64,000 nt of DNA. It comes from Mayamaea pseudoterrestris. Lineage: Eukaryota. Both the position numbers and the translations under genes were made by a program. Every line of letters begins with the position of its first letter. The first letter of the stretch is position 1. The stretch spans positions 1,612,001 through 1,676,000 of the forward strand of contig BROI01000002.1 of NCBI GenBank assembly GCA_027923505.1. Direction: 5' to 3'. Shown here one piece after another: positions 10,075-23,300 of this stretch. The notes beneath the pieces were generated by a model. It saw nothing but the letters and a program-made list of their open reading frames with translations, made no database searches and was not told where the DNA came from.

Positions 10075-12076
10075 ATGATGCGATTGTTTTTAATCTTGTT
10101 CCTCGCTTGTCCACTGCAAGCGAGCAGCGACAGCAGTCACAGCTTCATCAGTCCACTCGAGGAATTGATGGCATCGACGCAACCTCGCAAGCTACACGTT
10201 CGTAGGGGTAGAAGTGATCAAAACAGTCAAACGATTCTAGTAACTCCCGAGAATGTACAATGGCGACGAAGAAGACGAAGCTTACAAAATTATGGTACGT
10301 CGAACCGGAACCATCCGCTCATTATAATTCGACAATGGTTAAACTCATCAAACGCATCATCCTCGAACAACTTTAGAATTTTCAAGTGATATTGAGCGAA
10401 GACTCGAAGGTGGGGAGGAAGACAGAGACGAAGGCGATCCAGAGGATGGAGCTGATGTTACTCACCGAACCTGGGGCCAAGCATCCGGCAATCAACAGGG
10501 AGGCTATCAAGCGAGCGGTTACCATAATGGGTATACAAAAGGCAGCTACAATGCGTCAATCTACAACCAAGAAAATGCTGGCCCGACGGGAGATCACACT
10601 TACCTTGGATGCCTCGGTCTCAGCAACTATGAGCTCGAGCATGAATGGAAGTTCTCCGGCGAGGCGCCCAAATGCAGCTACGTTCATCACGCTCGCAAAA
10701 GAAAGAGATCAAAGGATGCCGATCAGGCAAACGCTCTAGCATCTAATGCAACCTGCGAAAAAAGTGGTTGGTTCTCATCCTGTAGTCAAAAGAAAGGAAA
10801 CAATACGTCATGGTCGACGTTCTATAAGAATCACTTTTCCGGTTCAAGCAAATCAGCAAACACAACCAACTCTACTGCCAACGAAGCAACTAGTCAGTAT
10901 AGTAATGGTGACGTAGACGAAGCTCCCGATCAGGAGGAAGGTGAAGGTAACGAGGACCAAGAGGAAGAAATGGAAGAAAATGGAAGCGAAGACGAAGAAG
11001 AAGAGGATGATCAGGGTGATGATGATACAGTTCTGACGAACGAAAACTATGAGAACGTAAATGGTGATGATTTTGTTTACAACCAGTCTTCGGTTACAAG
11101 CGCAGTTAAAGGTACATCGTCAAAGTGGTGGAGCAAATGGGGACAAAAGAACCAGACGTTGACAAATGCCACAAACGTTACAAGCGATGGATCTGATGTC
11201 GTACAAGCGGATGCAGCTGAAGTTGACGAAGCGGAAGACGAGCCAGAGGAGGAAGGTCAGGAGGAGGCGGATGAATACGATCCGTACGACGACTTTGATT
11301 TGGAGCAGTGCGACTCATATGAAAATCTTTGGCTGTGGGACTTGTCCTTGACTTGCAAAAATACAAAATCACTTGACGCATGTGAATGTTCGTATGCCGA
11401 AGAACTCTTGTTCGAGGGTACAATATCATGTGAAGACTTTAGTCGCTGCCCAAGCGATTGCGCCGTCTGTCGGACATGCTTCCAACTCATGGGATGCGTC
11501 AAGAGCTATCACGACACAAGCTCCACGAGCCCAGGCGGATTTGCTGGCATGCTTGTTGGCGCAGGTGTGTTTGTGGTGGTAGGCGGTATCGGCTATTGTT
11601 GTATGATGCGACGAAAGCGAGATGGTTCAAGTGAGCTTGGAGCCCATTTGATGTGGCGTGAGGTGGAGTCCAAGGGCGAATCAGACACGGACTCAAACGA
11701 TTCCGGAGCATGGGCTCCTCCAAAAACAATACTAGCGGGTACAGCCGACAATCTTCCTCTTTTCGACGACTATTATAAGAGCATGGACGAGGGTGAGGCT
11801 AGTCAGCCGCAGATGCGACCAGCGCAGCACCGGAAAGCAGCGATTCCAGGTCGCTCGGCGATACAACTTACAGATCGTGGGGAGACTGACACCATTGAAG
11901 ATGTTGCAACGACCAGCGTCGCTGATGTTGAGAACAGTTCTACCGACAATAGTGATGACTGTTCAGAGGTATCTGATTACGATTCGACCGTTGATGGTTC
12001 AACTGTACTATCTGCCGATGAAACTGGCGCCCAAAAGATATGGCTCGCCCCAGTCGACGTCAAACTAGACCAGTAA
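10075..12076 (+). CDS. Uncharacterised single-pass type-I membrane protein (signal peptide, RXL sites, acidic region, Cys-rich domain), 2 exons
   Basis: Exon 1 10075-10294 (MMRLFLILFLACPLQASS...). Intron 10295-10376 (GTACGT..TTTAG) joins it in frame to an open frame 10377-12076 that includes track ORF 10970-12076. TM helix GMLVGAGVFVVVGGIGYCCM is followed by RRKR. Confidence 0.75.
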
Positions 12077-12120: not shown

Positions 12121-13850
12121 TTACCGTTTGCTTCTCTTCTTTTTGCTCTTCCGCCGATTTGGATTTGATGGGCGGGTGAAAGTGTCGGGTAGATCAGCAG
12201 CAATATTGTTGGATGGGCCTGGCATACTTACACTGCCTACTGGCGTCAGATCTTTCTTGACCTTGGCTCTCGAGTCACGCTGTTGCCTCAAATCCGCTAA
12301 TCGTGCCACCAAGAGATCTCCTTCGTTCTTCTTTGACCCGGATCCTCCAAATTGCCCGATACCAAGCAGGCTGTCGACAAATCTATCCGGCTCAAACTGA
12401 AAATGTAATCAAGCAGAAAGTGTAGTGAGCGTTAGAAAAACTGGTATTTTCGTACATAAGTTGAGCGGTGAGAACTGACACTTACGTCGCGCAGATCTTC
12501 AATCCCTTCCCCGACTCCAATTAATTTGACCGGCAGATTCAAGTCGCGACTAATGGCAACGACACTACCGCCACGGGCGCTCCCATCCAATTTTGTCACA
12601 ATCAGCCCCGTCAAGCCAATTTCTTGGTTCCAAGTCTTTGCTGAATCAAGCGCCATGCGTCCCTGCGCGGCATCCAGCACGAGCAATGTCTCATGCGGCA
12701 CGAGAGTATTCAGTATTGGCTTGCCTTGATCGTCACTCTCTATCGACAGTCGCTTTTGTATAACTCGCTTCATCTTCTTCAACTCCTCCGTCAATGCATC
12801 ATTGCTACTCAGTCGGCCCGACGTGTCCACCAGCAGCACGTCGTATTGCTCACGCACCGCCTTGTCGAGCGCATTGTAAAGGACCGCCGCCGGCGACTTG
12901 GCCTGATCGTTTGGTCCAACCATTTCCACCTTGGCGCGGTCGGCCCAGTGCTGCAACTGATCCACGGCGCCGGCCCGAAAGGTGTCGCAGGCAGCAACTA
13001 GTACCTTGGTAGACGTAGCATTGGTGTCTGCATCGTCGTCGTCGTTGTCGCTGCTTCCTCCACCTTCAGTGCGAAAACGATGAGCCAGTTTTCCAATCGT
13101 AGTAGTCTTGCCCATGCCATTGGCACCCATGATGAACCAGACGACGGGAAATGATGTTGGCGTTGATGATCCTTGTATTGCTTGCGTAGTTTGGGAATCT
13201 TCGCCACTCGCAGTATCGTCGCCAAAGTCTTCGTCAATCGTCAGCGTCTCAATCAACTTGCCTCGCATAATACTCATGAGATCATCTCGTTGGAACGAAA
13301 CGCCCTTAGCTCCCTCCTCCTGCTTTTGAAAGACTAGTTCCTTCACTTCTTGTATAATGTCTTGCGCCGTGGCCGTTCCAAGATCCGCCATGAGCAGCAA
13401 GTCTTCCAGCTCGGCCAGCATTTCCTCTTGACTGTTTCCACTCAACGAACCCCATGACGTTCCAAAGAACGTGTCTAGATTCGACAACAATCGATTGCGA
13501 CTCTTGGCGAGTCCTTCACTGAACGCCTTGTTGGTTTGGGACGTGTAAACGGCAGCTTCCACTAGTCCCTGTCCAAGCTTGCCCTTGGCAGTCGCCGCGG
13601 CAAGGTTGTTGAGCTGCTGGAATCCTTCCTGCGATCGTTGCTTGAAAAATTCGAACACAAACAATCGAGAGTCTTTATTTAATGTTGTAGACGGTAGTAC
13701 AGGATTTGTTCTTGTCCAGGAATTTGTAGTGGTTTGTCGTGATGGTGCAGGACGCACGACAAAGGCATGCGCTGCATGATCATGGTGTCTCCATGTTACA
13801 AGAACAAGTCCAAACCATATAGACTGTCTTGAAATTTGGCTCATACTCAT
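12121..13850 (-). CDS. cpFtsY: Chloroplast SRP receptor GTPase FtsY, 2 exons
   Basis: Motifs GANGMGKTTTIGKLA, DTFRAGA, DTSGR, TKLDGSARGG and GVGEGIEDLRD|FEPDRFVDSLLG (intron 12485-12397). Presequence with AHA-FVV. Start could be 13850 or 13844. Confidence 0.93.
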
Positions 13851-14190
13851 GTACAGTGATTTTCGGCTCCTAATATCACAATAAGGAAGGGCCAAAATCG
13901 GCGTGACAAGTGCGTGACATCTCCATGGTCGAGACTGACGAATGGTGAGTCAGATCAAAGCGGTTTTGAAAGCTAGTCGGATGCGACGCGAAACTATGTT
14001 GTGCAACCTCCAAAAAGTCCATCTACCAAGTATTATCCACAGCAGTATCAAATTCATGTAATTTCATTTTTAGATTTTTAGAGGTAAATGTAGCATTTTC
14101 ATGTAATTAGTAATACAGACAACCGCGGGATGTCATAGCAGGAGGAGTAATTCGCCAGTGCCGCAGTCGCCTGCTGGATAACGAAACGAA

Positions 14191-16544
14191 TTAATCGTAA
14201 ATGGGCTCGTCCGAAAAAAGCATGACTGACGATGGGGAGCGCGACAGGTTGCTAGCCTCCTCGTCCGACATGTTGAGCTTGGACTGCTGCTGAATGGGCG
14301 GCGAAGGGAGACGGAGCTCGCCGCGCATCGCTGTAAAGTCCATGTCCTCGTCCATGCCAAAGTGGTCGAGATGCTCATGATTGTAGTCAGTGTGGTCAAG
14401 ATTGTCCGTTTGGTCGTAGTCGTCCTTGTGGGGCGGGAAGGTATGGATCATCTCACGATGTCCAGGCGCGTCGGCGCGGCCAAAGTAGTTGCGGCCAGTG
14501 GCCGTCGGGTCAGAGACTACGACGGGCGCCTCCGGATGCATAAAGTCCGCAGCATAGGCCTTCAATGCCTTGAGCTCCTCCATAATGAGCAAGCGCTCCT
14601 CCTCAAGGCTTGGGTCCTCCTGTACCGGCGCCGATGCACGCATAAAGAAGTTGCGGCCGCAGGCAGTCGGATCCGATGTGACAACTGGAAGCTCAGGGTG
14701 CAAGAACTCAACCGCCGTTTGCTTTAGGGCCTTGAGATCCTCCATGACTTGCACACGCTCCTCCTCCCACTCGGCATCATATTCGGGCGCCGAGGCCCGC
14801 GAGAAAAAGTTGCGGCCACAGGCCGTAGCATCCGTCGTAACAACGGGGAGCTCAGGATGCATGTAGTCCTTGGCGAGCTGCTTGAGAGCCTTCAACTCTG
14901 CAAAGACACAAGCACGCTCCTTCTCCAAGCTTGGATCATCTTGCTCAGGCGCTGACGCGCGGCCAAAATAGTTGCGCCCGCGAGCAAACGGATCCAATGT
15001 GACAACCGGGAGCTCTGGATGCAAATACTCGACAGCCTTGGTCTTCAAAGCCTTGAGGTCTTGCATAATGCGAATGCGCTCCTCCTCATTCTCGGCGTCA
15101 TATTCAAGAGCCGACGCGCGGGAGAAAAAGTTACGTCCTCTGGCCATGGGATCCGTAGTGTTAACAGGGAGCTCGGGATGCACGTAGTCAACGGCCAGCT
15201 GCTTGAGCATCTTCAAATCATCCAACACGCGAGCGCGCTCTTCCTCCAGTGCCGCATCATCCTGCTCGATGGCAGAGGCGCGACTAAAGTAGTTGCGGCC
15301 GCACGCAAAAGGGTCCAATGTCTTGACAGGGAGTTCAGGGTGCATGTAATCCTTGGCGAGCTGCTTCAAGCTCTTCATGTCTTGCATGATGCGAGTACGC
15401 TCTTCCTCATTCTCCGCATCAAACTCGGGCGCCGACGCGCGACTAAAGTAGTTGCGTCCGCAAGCAAAGGGATCCAACGTCATCACTGGGAGCTCGGGGT
15501 GCAAGTAGTCCTTGGCGAGCTGCTTGAGAGCCTTCAAGTCTCTCTCCATGCGGACTCGTTCCGCTTCCAATTCGACGTCAGCCTGATCCGAAGCAGAAGC
15601 GTGACTAAAGTAGTTGCGTCCGCAAGCAGTAGGATCCGTCGTCATGACGGGGAGCTCCGGATGCATGTATTCCTTGGCAAGCTGCTTCAAAGCCTTGAGA
15701 TCTTGCATGATGCAGACTCGTTCCGCCTCGTCCTCGGAAACATCCTGCTCGATTGCCGACGGGCGAGTAAAGTAGTTGCGTCCAAACGCAGTAGGATCGC
15801 TGGTGACGACTGAAAGCTCAGGATGCATGTAGTCGACGGCAAGCTGCTTGAGAGCCTTGGCTTCACTAAGGATCTGCGCGCGCTCCTCGGCGTCATTCTC
15901 GTCCATCTTGGGGACAGCCGACGGACGATCAAAGTAGTTGCGCCCAAAGACGGCAGGATCCGTCTCAATAAAAGCCTCCGGATGCAAGTAGTCCTTGGCA
16001 AGCTTCTTCAAGGCGGCAAGGTCGTTAAAAATCGCATTCTGCTCCTCCGCATCAACTTCCGGAACCGGATCAGAAGCATGATCGAAAAAGCAATGCGTCA
16101 TCGCAATCGGCGCCGACTCGACCGGCTCCTCCGGATGAAGAAACCAGACGGCCGCCTTCTTCAAGGCGCGAGCGTCCGCCAAGATCTGGAGGCGCTCCTC
16201 CCACTCTTCTGCAAAAATGGAAAAAGTGCGAGAGAACAAAGATCGTCGCTGTGAGATACAGAATCTTTTAAAAAACACACGCACGCAAACGCGCGCCTTA
16301 ATCAATACTTACCATCTTCCTCCTCTTCATCGTCCCAATCTTCGTCGTCATACGACTCCGTCGTCGAAACGCTCGGAGCATCGTCAGTGGCTTGAAGCGT
16401 CAAGGCGTCAGCGAGCACGTCAAAGGTTGACTCGTGCTGCTTCATGGTAATGGTGTGTTTTCCGTCCTCACAAACCGAACTGGACAACTTCTTGGCGTAC
16501 AAGTTGCCGCTAGCTTTGGCTTGTGAAGACGTTTGGTTCCCCAT
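14191..16544 (-). CDS. Uncharacterised tandem-repeat protein (11 x ~54-aa HPELP/GRNYF repeats), N-terminal MG motif, 2 exons
   Basis: Exon 1 16544-16313 (MGNQTSSQ...EEEED), intron 16312-16209 (GTAAGT..GCAG), exon 2 16208-14191. Repeats are visible in both protein and DNA. Confidence 0.88.
14480..16200 (-). repeat. Coding tandem repeat array with 159/162-bp period
   Basis: The HP-codon anchor (GGATGC/GGGTGC on +) occurs at 14534, 14696, 14855, 15017, 15176, 15338, 15497, 15659, 15821 and 15980, with a diverged copy at 16133. Confidence 0.92.
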
Positions 16545-17118
16545 GGTAGGATAGTAGTTTTGGATTGCGGTTGGTTACGTTTGACTGGTGGAGTTGGTTG
16601 TTGTGAGGGAAGCGCGCATGGGGGATCGCAAGCGAGGATCGCAAATGCGTCTGCAGCTTGCACTAACCCGGAGGTCTCCTCGGCGTGCTCTTTTGTGTCA
16701 ATGAGTACTCTATGATTGATAGTCGAAGAGTTTAGATATGAAACAATGCGAATGCGAACGAAGAGTTGACAGCACTTCATCAGCCCAGTCGGGACATACA
16801 GATTGCCAATCAAAGAATTATGGATTGCTTGTCAACCATGCTCGCGCGCCACTACTCTGGCTTGGAAAGTAGCAATGCTTGCATTTGACCAATCAAAACA
16901 GTTCCTCTCAACATTCATGACACTATGTTGCTTTCCACGTGTTAGTTGATCAGCAATTCGTGAAACTCGAGCTGAGTGATCCGTGAAGTCGCGCCAAAGA
17001 TCGCTTCACCGAGAACAATAAAGTGTCAAGCCCCACAAATCCAAAAAGCAAGCTCCGCCAAATAGAGCAGCAGCAGCGCCCTCGTTGAACTTGATATCCA
17101 ACAACATTCACAGCAACC

Positions 17119-17421
17119 ATGGCCAAGCAAAAGAAGGAAGAGGATGTTACTCTCAACAAGTAAGTGCATGACGAGAGCCGCGCGGGACGAGACGAGACGA
17201 TGGATGCGAAGCGTGAATGCGAAATCTATTCGGCGCGAGCTCTTATGCATCTGCTCGCTCACTCGCTTGGCTTTTACAGAAAAGACCAAAAGAAGGTTGA
17301 CAAGCTAGAAGCTCAAATTCCATACCATGAAGGACGCGGAAACAAGGACGAAGTGGTCAAGATCCAGGAGCAGATTGCATCCATTTGGCAAAAGGCCAAG
17401 GATGCCGCCAACGTCGCCTAA
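17119..17421 (+). CDS. Small (60-aa) hypothetical protein, 2 exons
   Basis: ATG in ACCATGG context at 17119, intron 17160-17279 (GTAAGT..TTTACAG). Spliced product MAKQKKEEDVTLNKKDQKKVDKLEAQIPYHEGRGNKDEVVKIQEQIASIWQKAKDAANVA. Confidence 0.75.
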
Positions 17422-18085: not shown

Positions 18086-19111
18086 TTAAAGTCCATCTAC
18101 ATTCCCATTTAAACCATCACCTCCCACTTTCACCACTTGCACCTCCATGATTAAGCTTTGATCGAACCGCTGCGCCATGCGCCGCTGCTTGGCGTAGTCG
18201 GTGGGAAAGGGTTGCTTGGACGTGTCAAAGCACGCTTCCTGCGCCACCATTGTCGCCGTTGGCACCACCACATAGTCCGTTTTCAAGTCGCCGCCACTGC
18301 CGCGTCCACCCGGCCCGCCGTCGCAAGCCTTGGTAGGCTTCTGCCATCCCTGCTGCGGCAGTACGACGAAGCGGCGTATTCCGCCGAGCCGCATGCCGAC
18401 GAGCGCCTCGTTCAAGGCGATTATGTTGAAGGGACTTCCCACAATGGTCGAGTAGCTCTTGGATCCTGCCTTGTCTTCGTCGTCCTCCAGTCCGTAGCCG
18501 CGCGAAAACACCACTGTCCCCTCGCCGCTCAAGCCATCGTAGCTGCGCTTGCCGAGTTTCAGCACCTTGTAGTTAATGGTCACGGCAGTGTTTGTGGTAA
18601 TGGGTAAACTGGACGAGTCGCCCACTGTTTCGTCGCGATAGCGCGTGCCACCAGCAGTCAACAGCGACGGCGTAACGTTCGCCAGTGCCTCTCTTTGCTC
18701 CCGTTCGGCCTGTTGCATGGCGAGCTCCTGGCACTCTTCCACGTTGGTGCACTTTTTCTTGACATCGCTGTTACTGGATGTTGCTTTTGGTTTAGAAAGA
18801 GGCGGAGCATTGCCCTTGACGAGTGCGTGTGATGGAAGTGATGAACATAATGATAGTGCTGCTACTGTACATGACGTGACTATGGATCTTGCCAGCGACC
18901 GTCTCGTGTACAAATTGCTTGTAGTGGATGGATCTTTGTTTGTGTTGACGTCGGCATCAGAGTTGGTGGCAACGAATTTCGGTGAAAGTTGAAACTGATG
19001 CAAATTTCTCGCAGATATTTGGTGACTCGTCAAAGATAGCCATGCTTCTGCTAGACGGCTGTGAAGAAGCAGCAGCAAGAGCGCCGAAAAGAGGTTTTGA
19101 AAAGTTGCCAT
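18086..19111 (-). CDS. FKBP-type peptidyl-prolyl isomerase-like protein, predicted thylakoid lumen
   Basis: Signal ending AEA-WL, twin-Arg TRRSL plus a hydrophobic stretch ending SHA. FKBP-like core GTRYRDETVG...IIALNEALVGMRLGGIRRFVV...LIMEVQVV. Confidence 0.82.
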   Translation of the reverse strand: MATFQNLFSALLLLLLHSRLAEAWLSLTSHQISARNLHQFQLSPKFVATNSDADVNTNKDPSTTSNLYTRRSLARSIVTSCTVAALSLCSSLPSHALVKGNAPPLSKPKATSSNSDVKKKCTNVEECQELAMQQAEREQREALANVTPSLLTAGGTRYRDETVGDSSSLPITTNTAVTINYKVLKLGKRSYDGLSGEGTVVFSRGYGLEDDEDKAGSKSYSTIVGSPFNIIALNEALVGMRLGGIRRFVVLPQQGWQKPTKACDGGPGGRGSGGDLKTDYVVVPTATMVAQEACFDTSKQPFPTDYAKQRRMAQRFDQSLIMEVQVVKVGGDGLNGNVDGL

Positions 19112-19272
19112 GGTGGTGAAAGAGTGATGGCCGAATGACGAAGCTTCATCGGGATGATGTCGCTACGTTTCTCAGAGATTCGTACCAGTATTGTCTCGTC
19201 TGACCGGTACTCGATTAGTGACTCACTGATTTGGCAGGTCGCGGCGATCCGCCATTATTTTTGAATGGCACC

Positions 19273-20127
19273 ATGAGGCTCCTCCTTGCCGCTGCATTGC
19301 TCCTGTGCAGCGCAACATTTGACTGTCAAGCCCTTGTGCAGCATGCCAATTCAGTCTGCAAAAGTCGCAGTCAATTCGCGAATTATGGATACTCATTGAG
19401 CATGAAAAGTGAAGCATCCGATGACGACATTGCTTCATCATCACCGCTCGAGTCGTCAACGACAACATCATTCGTCCAGTCTCGTCGAAGCGCCCTGATA
19501 ACCAGCGCCGCCGCTACATTACTTGCAGCATTACCTTTACTACTATCGCAACCATCATTTGCAGCAGCAGCCGCCGACTCCACTACTGACACTTCCGAGA
19601 AAAGCATGTTTGCCCCCACCTTTGTCCAGCAGTACGACGACTTTATCGCCACGCCATCCGGCATGAGCTACCGCAACGTCGTGGTTGCTAGTAACACAGA
19701 CACTGCTGCTTCCGCCGCACAATTGGGCGACCGTCTCGTGTTCGACTGGAGCGGCTACACGATTGGCTACTTTGGACGGCCCTTTCAGGCCAAGGGCGGA
19801 CCGCAGGGCGGCGCCTTTGACAAGGATTTGGACTATGAGCGCATTGTGCTGGGCAGTGGCAAGATTGTCAGGGGACTCGAGCAGGCGCTGATTGGTATGC
19901 GCGCGGGTGACGTGAGGCAAGTGATTGTGCCTTTTGGTGACTTGTCGTATCCGCAGACAAAGGATCCGAGCCACGAAGCGGTGGGGCCAAAGCCAAGCAC
20001 ATTTTCGGGGCAGCGGGCGTTGAACTTTGTGCTGGATAATCCGCGGCTGGATCGAACGTTGCTGTTCAACGTCAAGGTGATTCGAGTCGATAAACCAAAT
20101 GCGAGTGGAGGATTCACGAGGGGATGA
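19273..20127 (+). CDS. FKBP19-like lumenal peptidyl-prolyl isomerase
   Basis: Signal MRLLLAAALLL, twin-Arg SRRSAL...SFA. DWSGYTIGYFGRPF and GPKPSTFSGQRALNFVL...DRTLLFNV match the plant FKBP19 subtype as I recall it. Confidence 0.85.
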   Translation: MRLLLAAALLLCSATFDCQALVQHANSVCKSRSQFANYGYSLSMKSEASDDDIASSSPLESSTTTSFVQSRRSALITSAAATLLAALPLLLSQPSFAAAAADSTTDTSEKSMFAPTFVQQYDDFIATPSGMSYRNVVVASNTDTAASAAQLGDRLVFDWSGYTIGYFGRPFQAKGGPQGGAFDKDLDYERIVLGSGKIVRGLEQALIGMRAGDVRQVIVPFGDLSYPQTKDPSHEAVGPKPSTFSGQRALNFVLDNPRLDRTLLFNVKVIRVDKPNASGGFTRG

Positions 20128-20330: not shown

Positions 20331-23300
20331 TTACGGAGGAATGGCGAGCGCTGTAGATTGTTGGGATGAGACTCTATTCTCGTCGTGTCCAATCCCTTGC
20401 TCGATTGCAGTCCGAAGTTCGTTCGCTTGCGCTTGATTTCGGCAATTGATGACTTCAATGTCGCTTCCGTTGCGGCGAGGTGTATTCAAAACAACAATGA
20501 TGCACCATCCAGAGCTTCCGTCGGCTTGCTCAACGCTGCGGACCTCCATGCTATCAATGTGCTTGTACTTGAGCACGAGAAGCTCCTCCCCCGTCGAACC
20601 GAGCAACAGCAAGCGCTTGACACTTAGCAGTGCCACGCGGTCCACCATGTCCAAGTGGTTTAAATATCGCTCTCCAGCTAGCCGCGTCCTCATCATGAGG
20701 GCAGCCGCAGCTGCATCAGCGACATTATACACGCGCATGACATGCTCAGCTCCGTAAAACGCCCGGCGTGGCCGGATTTGAGCCAGCTGCGTACTGATAG
20801 GTCCAGTCCCTCCGTCGACAGTGCCCTTGACTCCGATCATGACATCCGTAATGCCGTCCGATATGCCAATAATCGGCTTCACCAACAAACCAAGTAAACC
20901 TTTTCCCATGCCCTTGGCAAAGCCTTCAATGCCCTTCTTTTCAGCGCCTCGCATTGGCGCCTTGACGACACCGGTCACACCATCGACGAATCCTTGCGCC
21001 AGTTTCGTCACTCCACTACCAATGCCAACGTTTGCTCCGCCTTGTTCGCGCAAAATCTCCTTGCGATCACGCTTTTGGGCATATCGACGATCCAGCGTCA
21101 ATATCGTCATGTTTTTGGAAAAGGTCTCGGTTAACATTGCCGCAGAGTCGGCAATTCCGCCGACCGTGTGTCGAGCCAACGACAAGGTGCCGCGAGCGAC
21201 GCCATCCACAAGATAAGTAGCGTCCATTTGCTGGACGGATTTTTGAAATCCCTTCATGGGCTCGAGTACAAAATCGCTAACACCATCGCCGAGGCCTCGA
21301 ACCAAGCCAAGCGGATTTCCAAAAGCTGCTAGCGAGCCAAGTAAAGCAGGTAGGTTTTGTCGAAGGGACGCCAAATAGTGTGCGCCGATATAAGTTATGA
21401 GTTGTGAACTCGTTGATGTGTGGTTTCGCAGGGAGACGCCCGCAAAGTCTAGATTTGCACCATCTAAACGTAACAGGGCATCCACAACGATGCTTTTAAA
21501 GACGCCTCTGACGACTGCAAGCGGCGTAGCATTACGATGCCCAACTTTGACGCCCAAGAGGCCGGCATGACCAAGCTGTACATCGCCCTTACGCACAGCC
21601 TGATGGATCTGGGCCGCTTTTTCTCCTTCGAGTAAGGCTTGAGCATGTGTGAGGGCGCGTGCTGGGGCCACAGAAAGCTTGATTTGGCAGGGCAAGATAG
21701 TTAAACCTTCAAAATAGAATTTTTGGCGACCAACAGCGGACGACACGTTAGCTTCTAATTCTTTTGCCTTTTGAGCGATGTCTGGTAGAGTCCATCGATT
21801 CCAGTCTTCAGTGACGTCAAACTCACGGAAATGAGAAACAATTTCGACAAAATACCTTTGCAAGCGAACTAGGAAAGCCAAGTCCACGTGGATAGACAAG
21901 TTTCTCGGAGCAATCGTTATAGACTTGAAACACACGACGCCAGTGCTATGTTTAGGAGCGATAGAAACGCCAATAACAAGCAGTGGAGCGGTTGGAAGGA
22001 TCGTGTCACCACATCCCAGCGGTAACCTTGCGCTTGCCTCCCGATTGAGGAGATCGAGCGGAGCAATAGCAACGGGAAACGGTGCATTGGGCACCATGTT
22101 GTCCACCTGAAGACTTGTTACAGTGATATACATTGTAGAGCCGGATGTCCTCAACCAGTCGAATGTAGCGATAGCGTTTATGTTCTCAAGGGAAATAACG
22201 CAAATCTCGCTTGGCGCTGAATCAACTAGACTAACAATCAATCCACGGAAGGCTGCCCGTAAGCTCACAATCATTTCTTGCCTGAAAGGTATCGTGTCAG
22301 CGAGTTCGATTGAGTTACGATGTGATGTGCTGATTGTAACAGGATCAAGAATCATTTTCAGGATGGCATCATCCTCGCCAAGCAATGACTTGTCTTTGAG
22401 CAACTCGTTCGCAAAGTATGCACCGTCTTCCATTTCACGAGAATAAACAGCTGTTTGAGTATCTCCTTGACATGATATGGAAATAAACATTTCGTTAACG
22501 AACGGGTACGAAAATATTGTGTCTGAGTCCGGCTTGACCATTAATCTGGATGAAAAAACGATGCAGTGATAAGGATGCATTTTCACGGAATGACTCAACA
22601 GATAAAGCAGTGACAAAACTTACCCAAAGCGCAACACTCGAGTCGGACCATCGTTTAAGACAATTCCAACAACGCGGATTCGGCGAATGGATGCTCGAAT
22701 CTCTGAAGATAGCAGCATTAGTCTGGAGGGATTCAAGCGTACTTTTTCTCCGACAGCAATCATTGATACCACTTTGGTCGTCTCTATTCCAGCTCTTGAA
22801 TTAAGTGGAGCCAAGGCTACTCGAGCTCGGACCAGCTCTTCCATTGACGCAGCCTTCCTTCCGGCATATTTACCCTGACGAAAAGGGACATCCAGCGCAA
22901 AGACAGCGCTCGCACTAGATCGGATCAATTCTCCTCCTAAAGAGCTAGCGTGACCACTAGCATCTTCACCATTAGCCAACAGCCCATCCTGCGAAAACCA
23001 AATTGGAAAGCTTGTCGCATTTTCAATCCGGAAAAGTGCGCCATGTCCCTCTCGATCTTCTTCTTTCAGCGCTAAGCTTATGCCTGTTCCTCCTGTTTTA
23101 GCTCTAATTTCTGATTCCACTTTAATCGACATTACTTCTTCACTAGCCTTCGAATTGTCCATTTGCAGCACTGCACGACAGGTTCGGAGAGGCACAGCGC
23201 CAATCATCAAGGGATCGAATCCTCCACTCCATCCAAAGGCATGCGAAACACTGTCAACAGGCCGAACGCTAACAAGCATGGGAAGCCGCCGATCAGACCA

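Follow-up and report, generated by a model that had tools for sequence, protein, structure and literature searches.

The DNA under study is a stretch of 64,000 nucleotides from Mayamaea pseudoterrestris (GenBank assembly GCA_027923505.1, contig BROI01000002.1, positions 1,612,001 to 1,676,000), referred to as the window, and all positions are counted from its first letter. On its minus strand lies a two-exon gene, whose joined exons translate without an internal stop into a protein of 749 amino acids (aa). NCBI holds an identical 749-aa model under GKY92042.1, listed as a 'hypothetical protein' of this pennate diatom. The parts of the gene are as follows.

16313..16544, minus strand: exon 1, 232 nt with the ATG at 16544, encoding a low-complexity leader (residues 1-77)
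16209..16312, minus strand: intron, 104 nt, GT-AG
14191..16208, minus strand: exon 2, 2018 nt, encoding the repeat array and the tail and ending at the stop codon

A spliced gene at a single locus

The splicing of the gene was followed in four public runs of one study (X1-X4), the kind of which is not on record, by aligning them to the locus. The contigs of X2, X3 and X4 connect position 16208 to position 16313, leaving out exactly the 104 nt of the predicted intron, and have little coverage outside about 14100-16850. The contigs of X1 lack this joint and continue across the intron and its flanks. These patterns lead us to regard X2-X4 as RNA and X1 as DNA. A transcript crossing the intron had been set beforehand as a test by the initial annotation, and with X2-X4 read as RNA, the exact joint in three of the four runs therefore provides it. 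The gene is real, spliced and expressed. All four runs carry many substitutions relative to the locus between 14329 and 16968, and X2-X4 also carry a 6-nt in-frame insertion at 16434 in exon 1, which suggests divergent alleles or strains.

The position of the intron was also considered at 18 related loci, chosen as having no long Met-initiated leader in frame upstream of the first repeat unit. A YAG lies at most 15 nt from the start of the unit in 14 of them, and an upstream MGxxxS exon is also present in 10 of the 18. This suggests that the intron position is conserved among the related loci, a YAG by itself being common. In the 30.6-Mb genome, the repeat segment and the tail each match this locus alone, so that the gene occupies a single locus.

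The repeat gene stands head-to-head with a small two-exon gene (17119-17421, plus strand) encoding about 60 Lys/Glu-rich residues, the second-exon frame of which has no Pfam match. The neighbors at 12432-13949 (minus), 18086-19162 (minus) and 19222-20127 (plus) encode an SRP54/FtsY-type GTPase and two FKBP-like proteins and offer no functional clue. Further away, a 577-aa frame (10343-12076, plus) containing runs of acidic residues, a Cys-rich segment and a single hydrophobic stretch has no Pfam match at E ≤ 0.01, and neither does a 762-aa open frame (20331-22619, minus), which we take to resemble the C-terminal region of VPS13. Two identical actin-related open frames (L092 and L093, in G000:C2), about 20 kb apart and with partly shared flanks, represent either a recent duplication or an assembly repeat.

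The repeat unit and its turnover in diatoms and Parmales

Exon 2 carries eleven units, each centered on an HPE motif.

16063..16206, minus strand: repeat unit 1, divergent, without the DP...GRN part, often most similar to the first units of other species
15907..16062, minus strand: repeat unit 2
15748..15906, minus strand: repeat unit 3
15586..15747, minus strand: repeat unit 4
15424..15585, minus strand: repeat unit 5
15265..15423, minus strand: repeat unit 6
15103..15264, minus strand: repeat unit 7
14944..15102, minus strand: repeat unit 8
14782..14943, minus strand: repeat unit 9
14623..14781, minus strand: repeat unit 10
14461..14622, minus strand: repeat unit 11

The HPE motifs follow each other at spacings of 51, 53, 54, 54, 53, 54, 53, 54, 53 and 54 aa, and the pairwise identity among the units is 38-75%. 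The array is also detected by Tandem Repeats Finder, at periods of 162 and 321 nt. On the family profile, which includes these units, they score 64-95 bits, whereas 500 shuffled versions of the protein reach 4.7 bits at best. The eleven copies of a repeat of about 54 aa, as described in the initial annotation, are thus confirmed. The same annotation described the first part of the unit as an acidic helix, of which the helix is borne out by structure prediction and the acidity is not: the 19 residues preceding HPE have a net charge of 0 to +3, i.e., they are neutral to basic, and the acidity of the array (net −3.9 per unit, pI 4.6, net charge −71) resides in the linkers.

The homologue counts given here take in related and redundant sequences, which are not independent events. 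With exon 2 as the query, 418 proteins were matched at E ≤ 0.001 among 8000 scored candidates (the best 120 of the 418 were inspected), and 342 matches were obtained among 1.84 billion representatives (the best 150 of the 342 were inspected). A Skeletonema query gave 279 matches among 7999 candidates. The named organisms among the matches listed include Seminavis, Amphora, Cylindrotheca, Nitzschia, Pseudo-nitzschia, Skeletonema, Thalassiosira, Cyclotella, Stephanodiscus, Odontella, Attheya, Chaetoceros and Corethron. The family is therefore present in pennate, polar-centric and radial-centric diatoms, and also in Triparma, a member of the Parmales, the silica-walled sister lineage of the diatoms. 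The orthologue of Triparma columacea has nine units and shares the tail, so the family reaches beyond diatoms, whereas a diatom-specific one had been thought possible from the single sequence. No names beyond diatoms and Parmales occur among the matches listed, most of which are unnamed. Longer fused forms were absent at E ≤ 0.01 from 8000 candidates of 1786-5000 aa, which is weak evidence.

Conservation was counted in 1545 units from 119 proteins, which have 7-18 units each, mostly spaced by 50-55 residues. About a dozen positions, distributed across a footprint of about 45 residues, are kept in at least 90% of the units. They comprise two residues of HPE (Pro and Glu), two of GRNYF (Arg and Phe) and three of RxSA (Arg, Ser and Ala), together with an Asp of the arm that follows the helix and with Glu, Leu, Lys and Ala within the helix. 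The corresponding frequencies are 100% for Pro, 99% for Arg, 98% for the helix Ala, 97% for both the second Arg and Ala, 96% for Glu, 95% for Phe and Ser, 94% for Leu, 93% for Asp and 90% for Lys. The invariance proposed earlier for four residues hence applies nearly to Arg and Asp, but not to His (82%) and Asn (84%).

In a comparison of 174 units from 14 named proteins, the nearest neighbor of a unit belongs to its own protein in 128 cases. The arrays have therefore been rebuilt within lineages while the motif was retained, and judged by their sequences the internal units look interchangeable. Such turnover with a retained motif is the pattern expected of interchangeable docking units. In Thalassiosirales-type proteins (P0013, P0041, P0044, P0260, P0275, P0276 and others) the arrays are strongly homogenized, with 70-86% identity within a protein. 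An example of a reduced unit is P0299 from Corethron pennatum, in which the RxSAP end is missing from most units, suggesting that helix-HPE-D-GRNYF may be the core of the module. The units of Triparma differ in the length of the loop between Val and Arg.

Signals at the two ends of the protein

The array is flanked by a leader and a tail, in which four elements can be distinguished.

16527..16544, minus strand: putative N-myristoylation signal MGNQTS, with Gly2 and a conserved Ser6
16204..16361, minus strand: acidic patch (residues 62-79), interrupted by the intron, lying just ahead of unit 1 and similar in the full-length rows of alignment A3
14350..14364, minus strand: acidic-aromatic motif HFxMD (residues 693-697), found as such or as a variant in 115 of 207 tails
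14215..14247, minus strand: candidate AMPK-family site LxRxxSxxxL followed by Phe (residues 732-742, the consensus itself at 732-741), with Ser737 as the presumed acceptor

MGxxxS is an established myristoylation consensus. Of 118 Met-initiated proteins with leaders of at least 55 residues, 73 begin with Met-Gly, and 72 of these 73 have Ser6. With identical starts removed, 58 Met-Gly starts remain, 57 of them with Ser6, whereas the Ser/Thr background is 23%. The genome also encodes an N-myristoyltransferase (PF01233 match, 234.9 bits). The N-terminal end is thus under selection as a putative myristoylation signal. Met-Gly is absent from the other 45 of the 118 leaders, including those of Seminavis and most Thalassiosirales-type proteins, and the Triparma model lacks it as well. 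Since several of these leaders have an in-frame stop upstream, the loss of Gly2 is probably real in part, and the anchor is therefore dispensable in some lineages. The myristoylation signal noted in the initial annotation is consequently conserved, but not as a universal anchor of the family. A second membrane signal would be weak: Cys occurs within the first 30 residues in 6 of the 58 starts, the first 40 residues mostly contain 2-7 Lys/Arg, and a short G-R-K-type motif recurs. The Thalassiosirales-type leaders, mostly without Met-Gly, keep a GGRK motif.

At the opposite end, the tail motif, which the initial annotation had not recognized, reads as an AMPK-family phosphorylation consensus, LxRxxSxxxL (excerpt of PMC6890249). 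Its strict form (hydrophobic-x-R/K-x-x-S-x-x-x-hydrophobic) occurs in 182 of 264 tails, compared with 9.5 on average and no more than 21 when the tails were shuffled 200 times, and the C-terminal end is under selection as a candidate kinase site. Thalassiosirales-type tails have a Lys-Lys variant of the site. The exact LxRxxSxxxL is shared with AMPK-family substrates such as CRTCs and class IIa HDACs, the likeness being one of motif only and without the Pro at +2. This Pro was reported in six of seven such sites, and sites lacking it may still bind 14-3-3 proteins (excerpt of PMC6890249). A 14-3-3 gene is encoded in the genome, and RSxSxP, the mode I form with +2 Pro, occurs in no tail and in 1 of 304 family proteins. 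A literature search found no phosphoproteome entry linked to the family. Nor was a description of the family found there, as judged by titles and the first parts of abstracts. Orthologue identifiers from diatoms other than P. tricornutum and T. pseudonana match no paper and are absent from the searchable supplements of PMC13403384 and PMC10328945.

Predicted fold and proposed mechanism

The AlphaFold2 model of the full chain, based on 119 alignment rows, consists of eleven isolated helices with disordered ends (pLDDT 60.7, pTM 0.25; pLDDT below 50 for residues 1-71). For three units, modeled from a 128-row alignment of three-unit segments, the local confidence rises to a pLDDT of 81.7 with a pTM of 0.39 and no sheet. 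The predicted unit comprises a helix of 25 residues, 17 residues of ordered coil, a turn of 3 residues at the aromatic motif, and a linker. The helices range from 22 to 26 residues, with about 29 residues of coil between them. Chains that fold on a partner often combine high local confidence with the lack of a global fold. In the mean-field covariation of 2234 distinct units, the signal consists mainly of helical i+4/i+7 pairs and one local turn after HPE, which is the strongest, while robust contacts between the helix and the arm are absent. Long-range and between-unit covariation is weak and falls mostly on near-invariant or neighboring-register columns. As each unit has one helix and neither the models nor the weak between-unit covariation indicate packing between units, the predictions rule against a TPR, ankyrin, HEAT or LRR solenoid.

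Known families and structures were searched as well. In Pfam and NCBIfam no family fits consistently, and the scattered, repeat-summed matches, which vary by protein, were treated as noise. TPR, ankyrin, HEAT/ARM and LRR repeats are absent from the 7 Pfam families at E ≤ 1 for protein P0003 and from the best 25 of the 47 Pfam families for 128 three-unit segments. Exon 2 has no match at E ≤ 1 among PDB sequences, and the unit profiles gave two matches and one match there, respectively, all at E 1-2. With the full-chain and three-unit models, no PDB entry reached E ≤ 0.001 in Foldseek, and no BFVD entry did. With VIA-align, none of 48,161 chains reached Z ≥ 5 (best Z 3.8, rmsd 16.9 over 113 residues), a result which excludes no family, and ESM Atlas gave no usable match for the whole exon or for three units, which indicates neither absence nor novelty. 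The repeat stays unassigned, as in the initial annotation, and the AlphaFold and Foldseek comparison proposed there returned one helix per unit and no PDB match at E ≤ 0.001.

Architectures of a similar type are known from other proteins. WH2/beta-thymosin and RPEL repeat proteins are multi-repeat G-actin binders with disordered helix-plus-extended repeats that fold on one conserved partner, as is proposed for the present units, and they are also often acidic and variable in copy number. The unit described here differs in being longer (54 aa) and in having its own HPE and GRNYF motifs. A WH2 pattern matches none of the 304 family proteins, an RPEL pattern matches 7 of the 304 and is absent from this protein, and neither family is among the Pfam matches listed. 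The stathmins SCG10 and RB3 have N-terminal acylation, helical tubulin-binding repeats at a spacing of roughly 50 residues and control by serine kinases, a layout resembled here by the acyl signal, the repeated helices and the candidate kinase site. In contrast to them, a proline-rich arm here breaks the helix every ~25 residues, the units number 7-18, and the signal is for myristoylation. A long continuous helix of the stathmin type was rejected on the lengths of the predicted helices and coils, and no stathmin match is listed in Pfam. MARCKS and Plasmodium GAP45 are myristoylated, acidic, phospho-regulated and largely unfolded membrane linkers, which the present protein resembles in its acidity and in its putative signals for myristoylation and phosphorylation. 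They have no long conserved repeat array, whereas the present family has no conserved adjacent palmitoylation Cys or strong basic cluster. GAP45, for which a G2A phenotype has been described (excerpt of PMC8544853), would be a functional analogue as an acylated linker only.

The reading that we favor, with moderate confidence, is that of a string of interchangeable bind-and-fold modules, tethered to a membrane and regulated by phosphorylation, which share one conserved partner; this partner is most likely a subunit of the cytoskeleton. In this mechanism, the protein would be a cytosolic, largely unfolded string hanging from a membrane, with Gly2 acylated by N-myristoyltransferase to give a weak and reversible anchor. 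Each unit would provide one helix of ~25 residues with a conserved face (Arg, Ile/Leu, Ala, Leu-Lys, Ala and Tyr at i, i+3/4 and i+7) capped by HPE, after which come an extended arm, conserved as PV..D..GRNYFxRxSAP, and an acidic linker that varies. Without packing on its neighbors, as predicted, every unit would fold onto its own copy of a slowly evolving partner common to all units, and the scaffold might thereby gather or sequester 7-18 copies at the membrane. A kinase of the AMPK, SnRK1 or CDPK type acting on the tail LxRxxSxxxL, possibly together with 14-3-3, could switch the location or the activity of the scaffold. The slow evolution of the partner is suggested by the 45-residue footprint, kept across all diatoms. 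Actin or tubulin is the most likely partner class and carries about half of the weight of this reading, other conserved partners sharing the rest. WH2/thymosin-repeat proteins and stathmins serve as the models for this guess, even though the WH2 and RPEL patterns find no match in this protein. The acidity of the array argues against binding along a filament surface, as typical binders of filament surfaces differ from acidic arrays. The initial annotation had proposed a membrane-tethered scaffold with a repeated ligand- or filament-binding module; its scaffold-like layout agrees with these results, and the binding is what we infer.

Several other explanations account for parts of the same evidence. 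The heptad-spaced helix face with its central alanines, together with the conserved myristoylation signal, would suit a self-assembling membrane skeleton or coat, in which helices of different molecules bundle into a submembrane meshwork without a foreign partner; many protists make cortical skeletons of low-complexity repeat proteins (excerpt of PMC6212826). Among such proteins the epiplastins (alveolins and articulins) are likewise lineage-restricted, charged and repetitive candidates for the cortical skeleton. Their medial domains are rich in Val/Ile, poor in Ala/Gly and of beta/coil structure with many acid-base dyads, and none was found in stramenopiles by the Pfam search of that paper (excerpt of PMC6212826). 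The present array, having 8.1% Val+Ile, 13.1% Ala, 20 dyads in 582 aa and helical constrained units, was rejected as a member. With this departure from the epiplastins, the unpacked three-unit model, the weak between-unit covariation and an invariant arm that bundling leaves unexplained, self-assembly is rather unlikely. A MARCKS- or LEA-like buffer, disordered and acidic, with amphipathic helices that take up lipids, Ca2+ or further small ligands instead of docking on a protein, would fit the pI and net charge, the disordered ends, the N-terminal lipid signal and the conserved His, Asp and Glu. The hydrophobic moments of the helices are, however, modest (0.20-0.38), and Pro, two Arg, Phe, Ser and Ala are fixed at 95% or more, with His the less constant residue at 82%. 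Lipid-binding helices do not usually need exact fixed residues, and such a buffer is unlikely.

The units could also be autonomous helix-plus-arm mini-domains, arranged as beads on a string, each with its own binding or catalytic site. The local confidence of the arm stays at 69-93 in the three-unit model, the covariation peak at the turn after HPE is accompanied by weak Pro-Arg, Pro-Phe and Val-Tyr pairs, and the loop varies in length in Triparma. As invariant columns give no covariation signal, the data leave room for a small self-folded unit. The probability of this explanation is nevertheless low, since a unit of one helix and a 3-residue turn has no strands, helix-to-arm contacts find no robust covariation, and the RxSAP end is dispensed with in many Corethron units. 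Lower still is that of tandem degenerate RIIa-type docking/dimerization (D/D) domains, pairing and binding AKAP-like helices, which is largely refuted. PF02197 passes the whole-protein cut-off in 6 of 15 scanned proteins, the six having been preselected for that label, and at E ≤ 0.01 it matches 12 of the 128 three-unit segments. These scores add up contributions from successive repeats, the strongest alignments are confined to positions 20-32 of the 38 in the profile (in one case 20-37), and unrelated families match as often or as strongly. This protein was rejected as a member at 14.7 bits against a cut-off of 22.4, with 13 of the 38 positions matched, and no RIIa domain in this genome exceeds the cut-off. 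The likeness to the PKA RII domain is that of a short D-P-x(6)-Y-F-like stretch with weak additive matches, and the second D/D helix corresponds in the model to the 3-residue turn at the YF motif.

The string of bind-and-fold modules can be extended to a more specific proposal, to which we give little probability. A cytoskeleton-to-membrane coupler that arose in the ancestor of diatoms and Parmales might be anchored to the cytoplasmic side of the silica deposition vesicle or the plasma membrane, bind a row of actin or tubulin subunits by a novel type of repeat, be switched by an energy- or calcium-sensing kinase, and take part in shaping the wall. Diatom shaping, wall formation and the positioning of organelles rely on links between membranes and the cytoskeleton, the lineage-specific parts of which are poorly known. 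The present gene belongs to a repeat family that had no name before, occurs in diatoms and Parmales and has an architecture of a familiar type; it is a sharply defined orphan and not yet a mechanism. Gly2 and the serine of the tail provide two precise putative switches in one single-locus gene, and the partner, once named, would define a new linear binding module.
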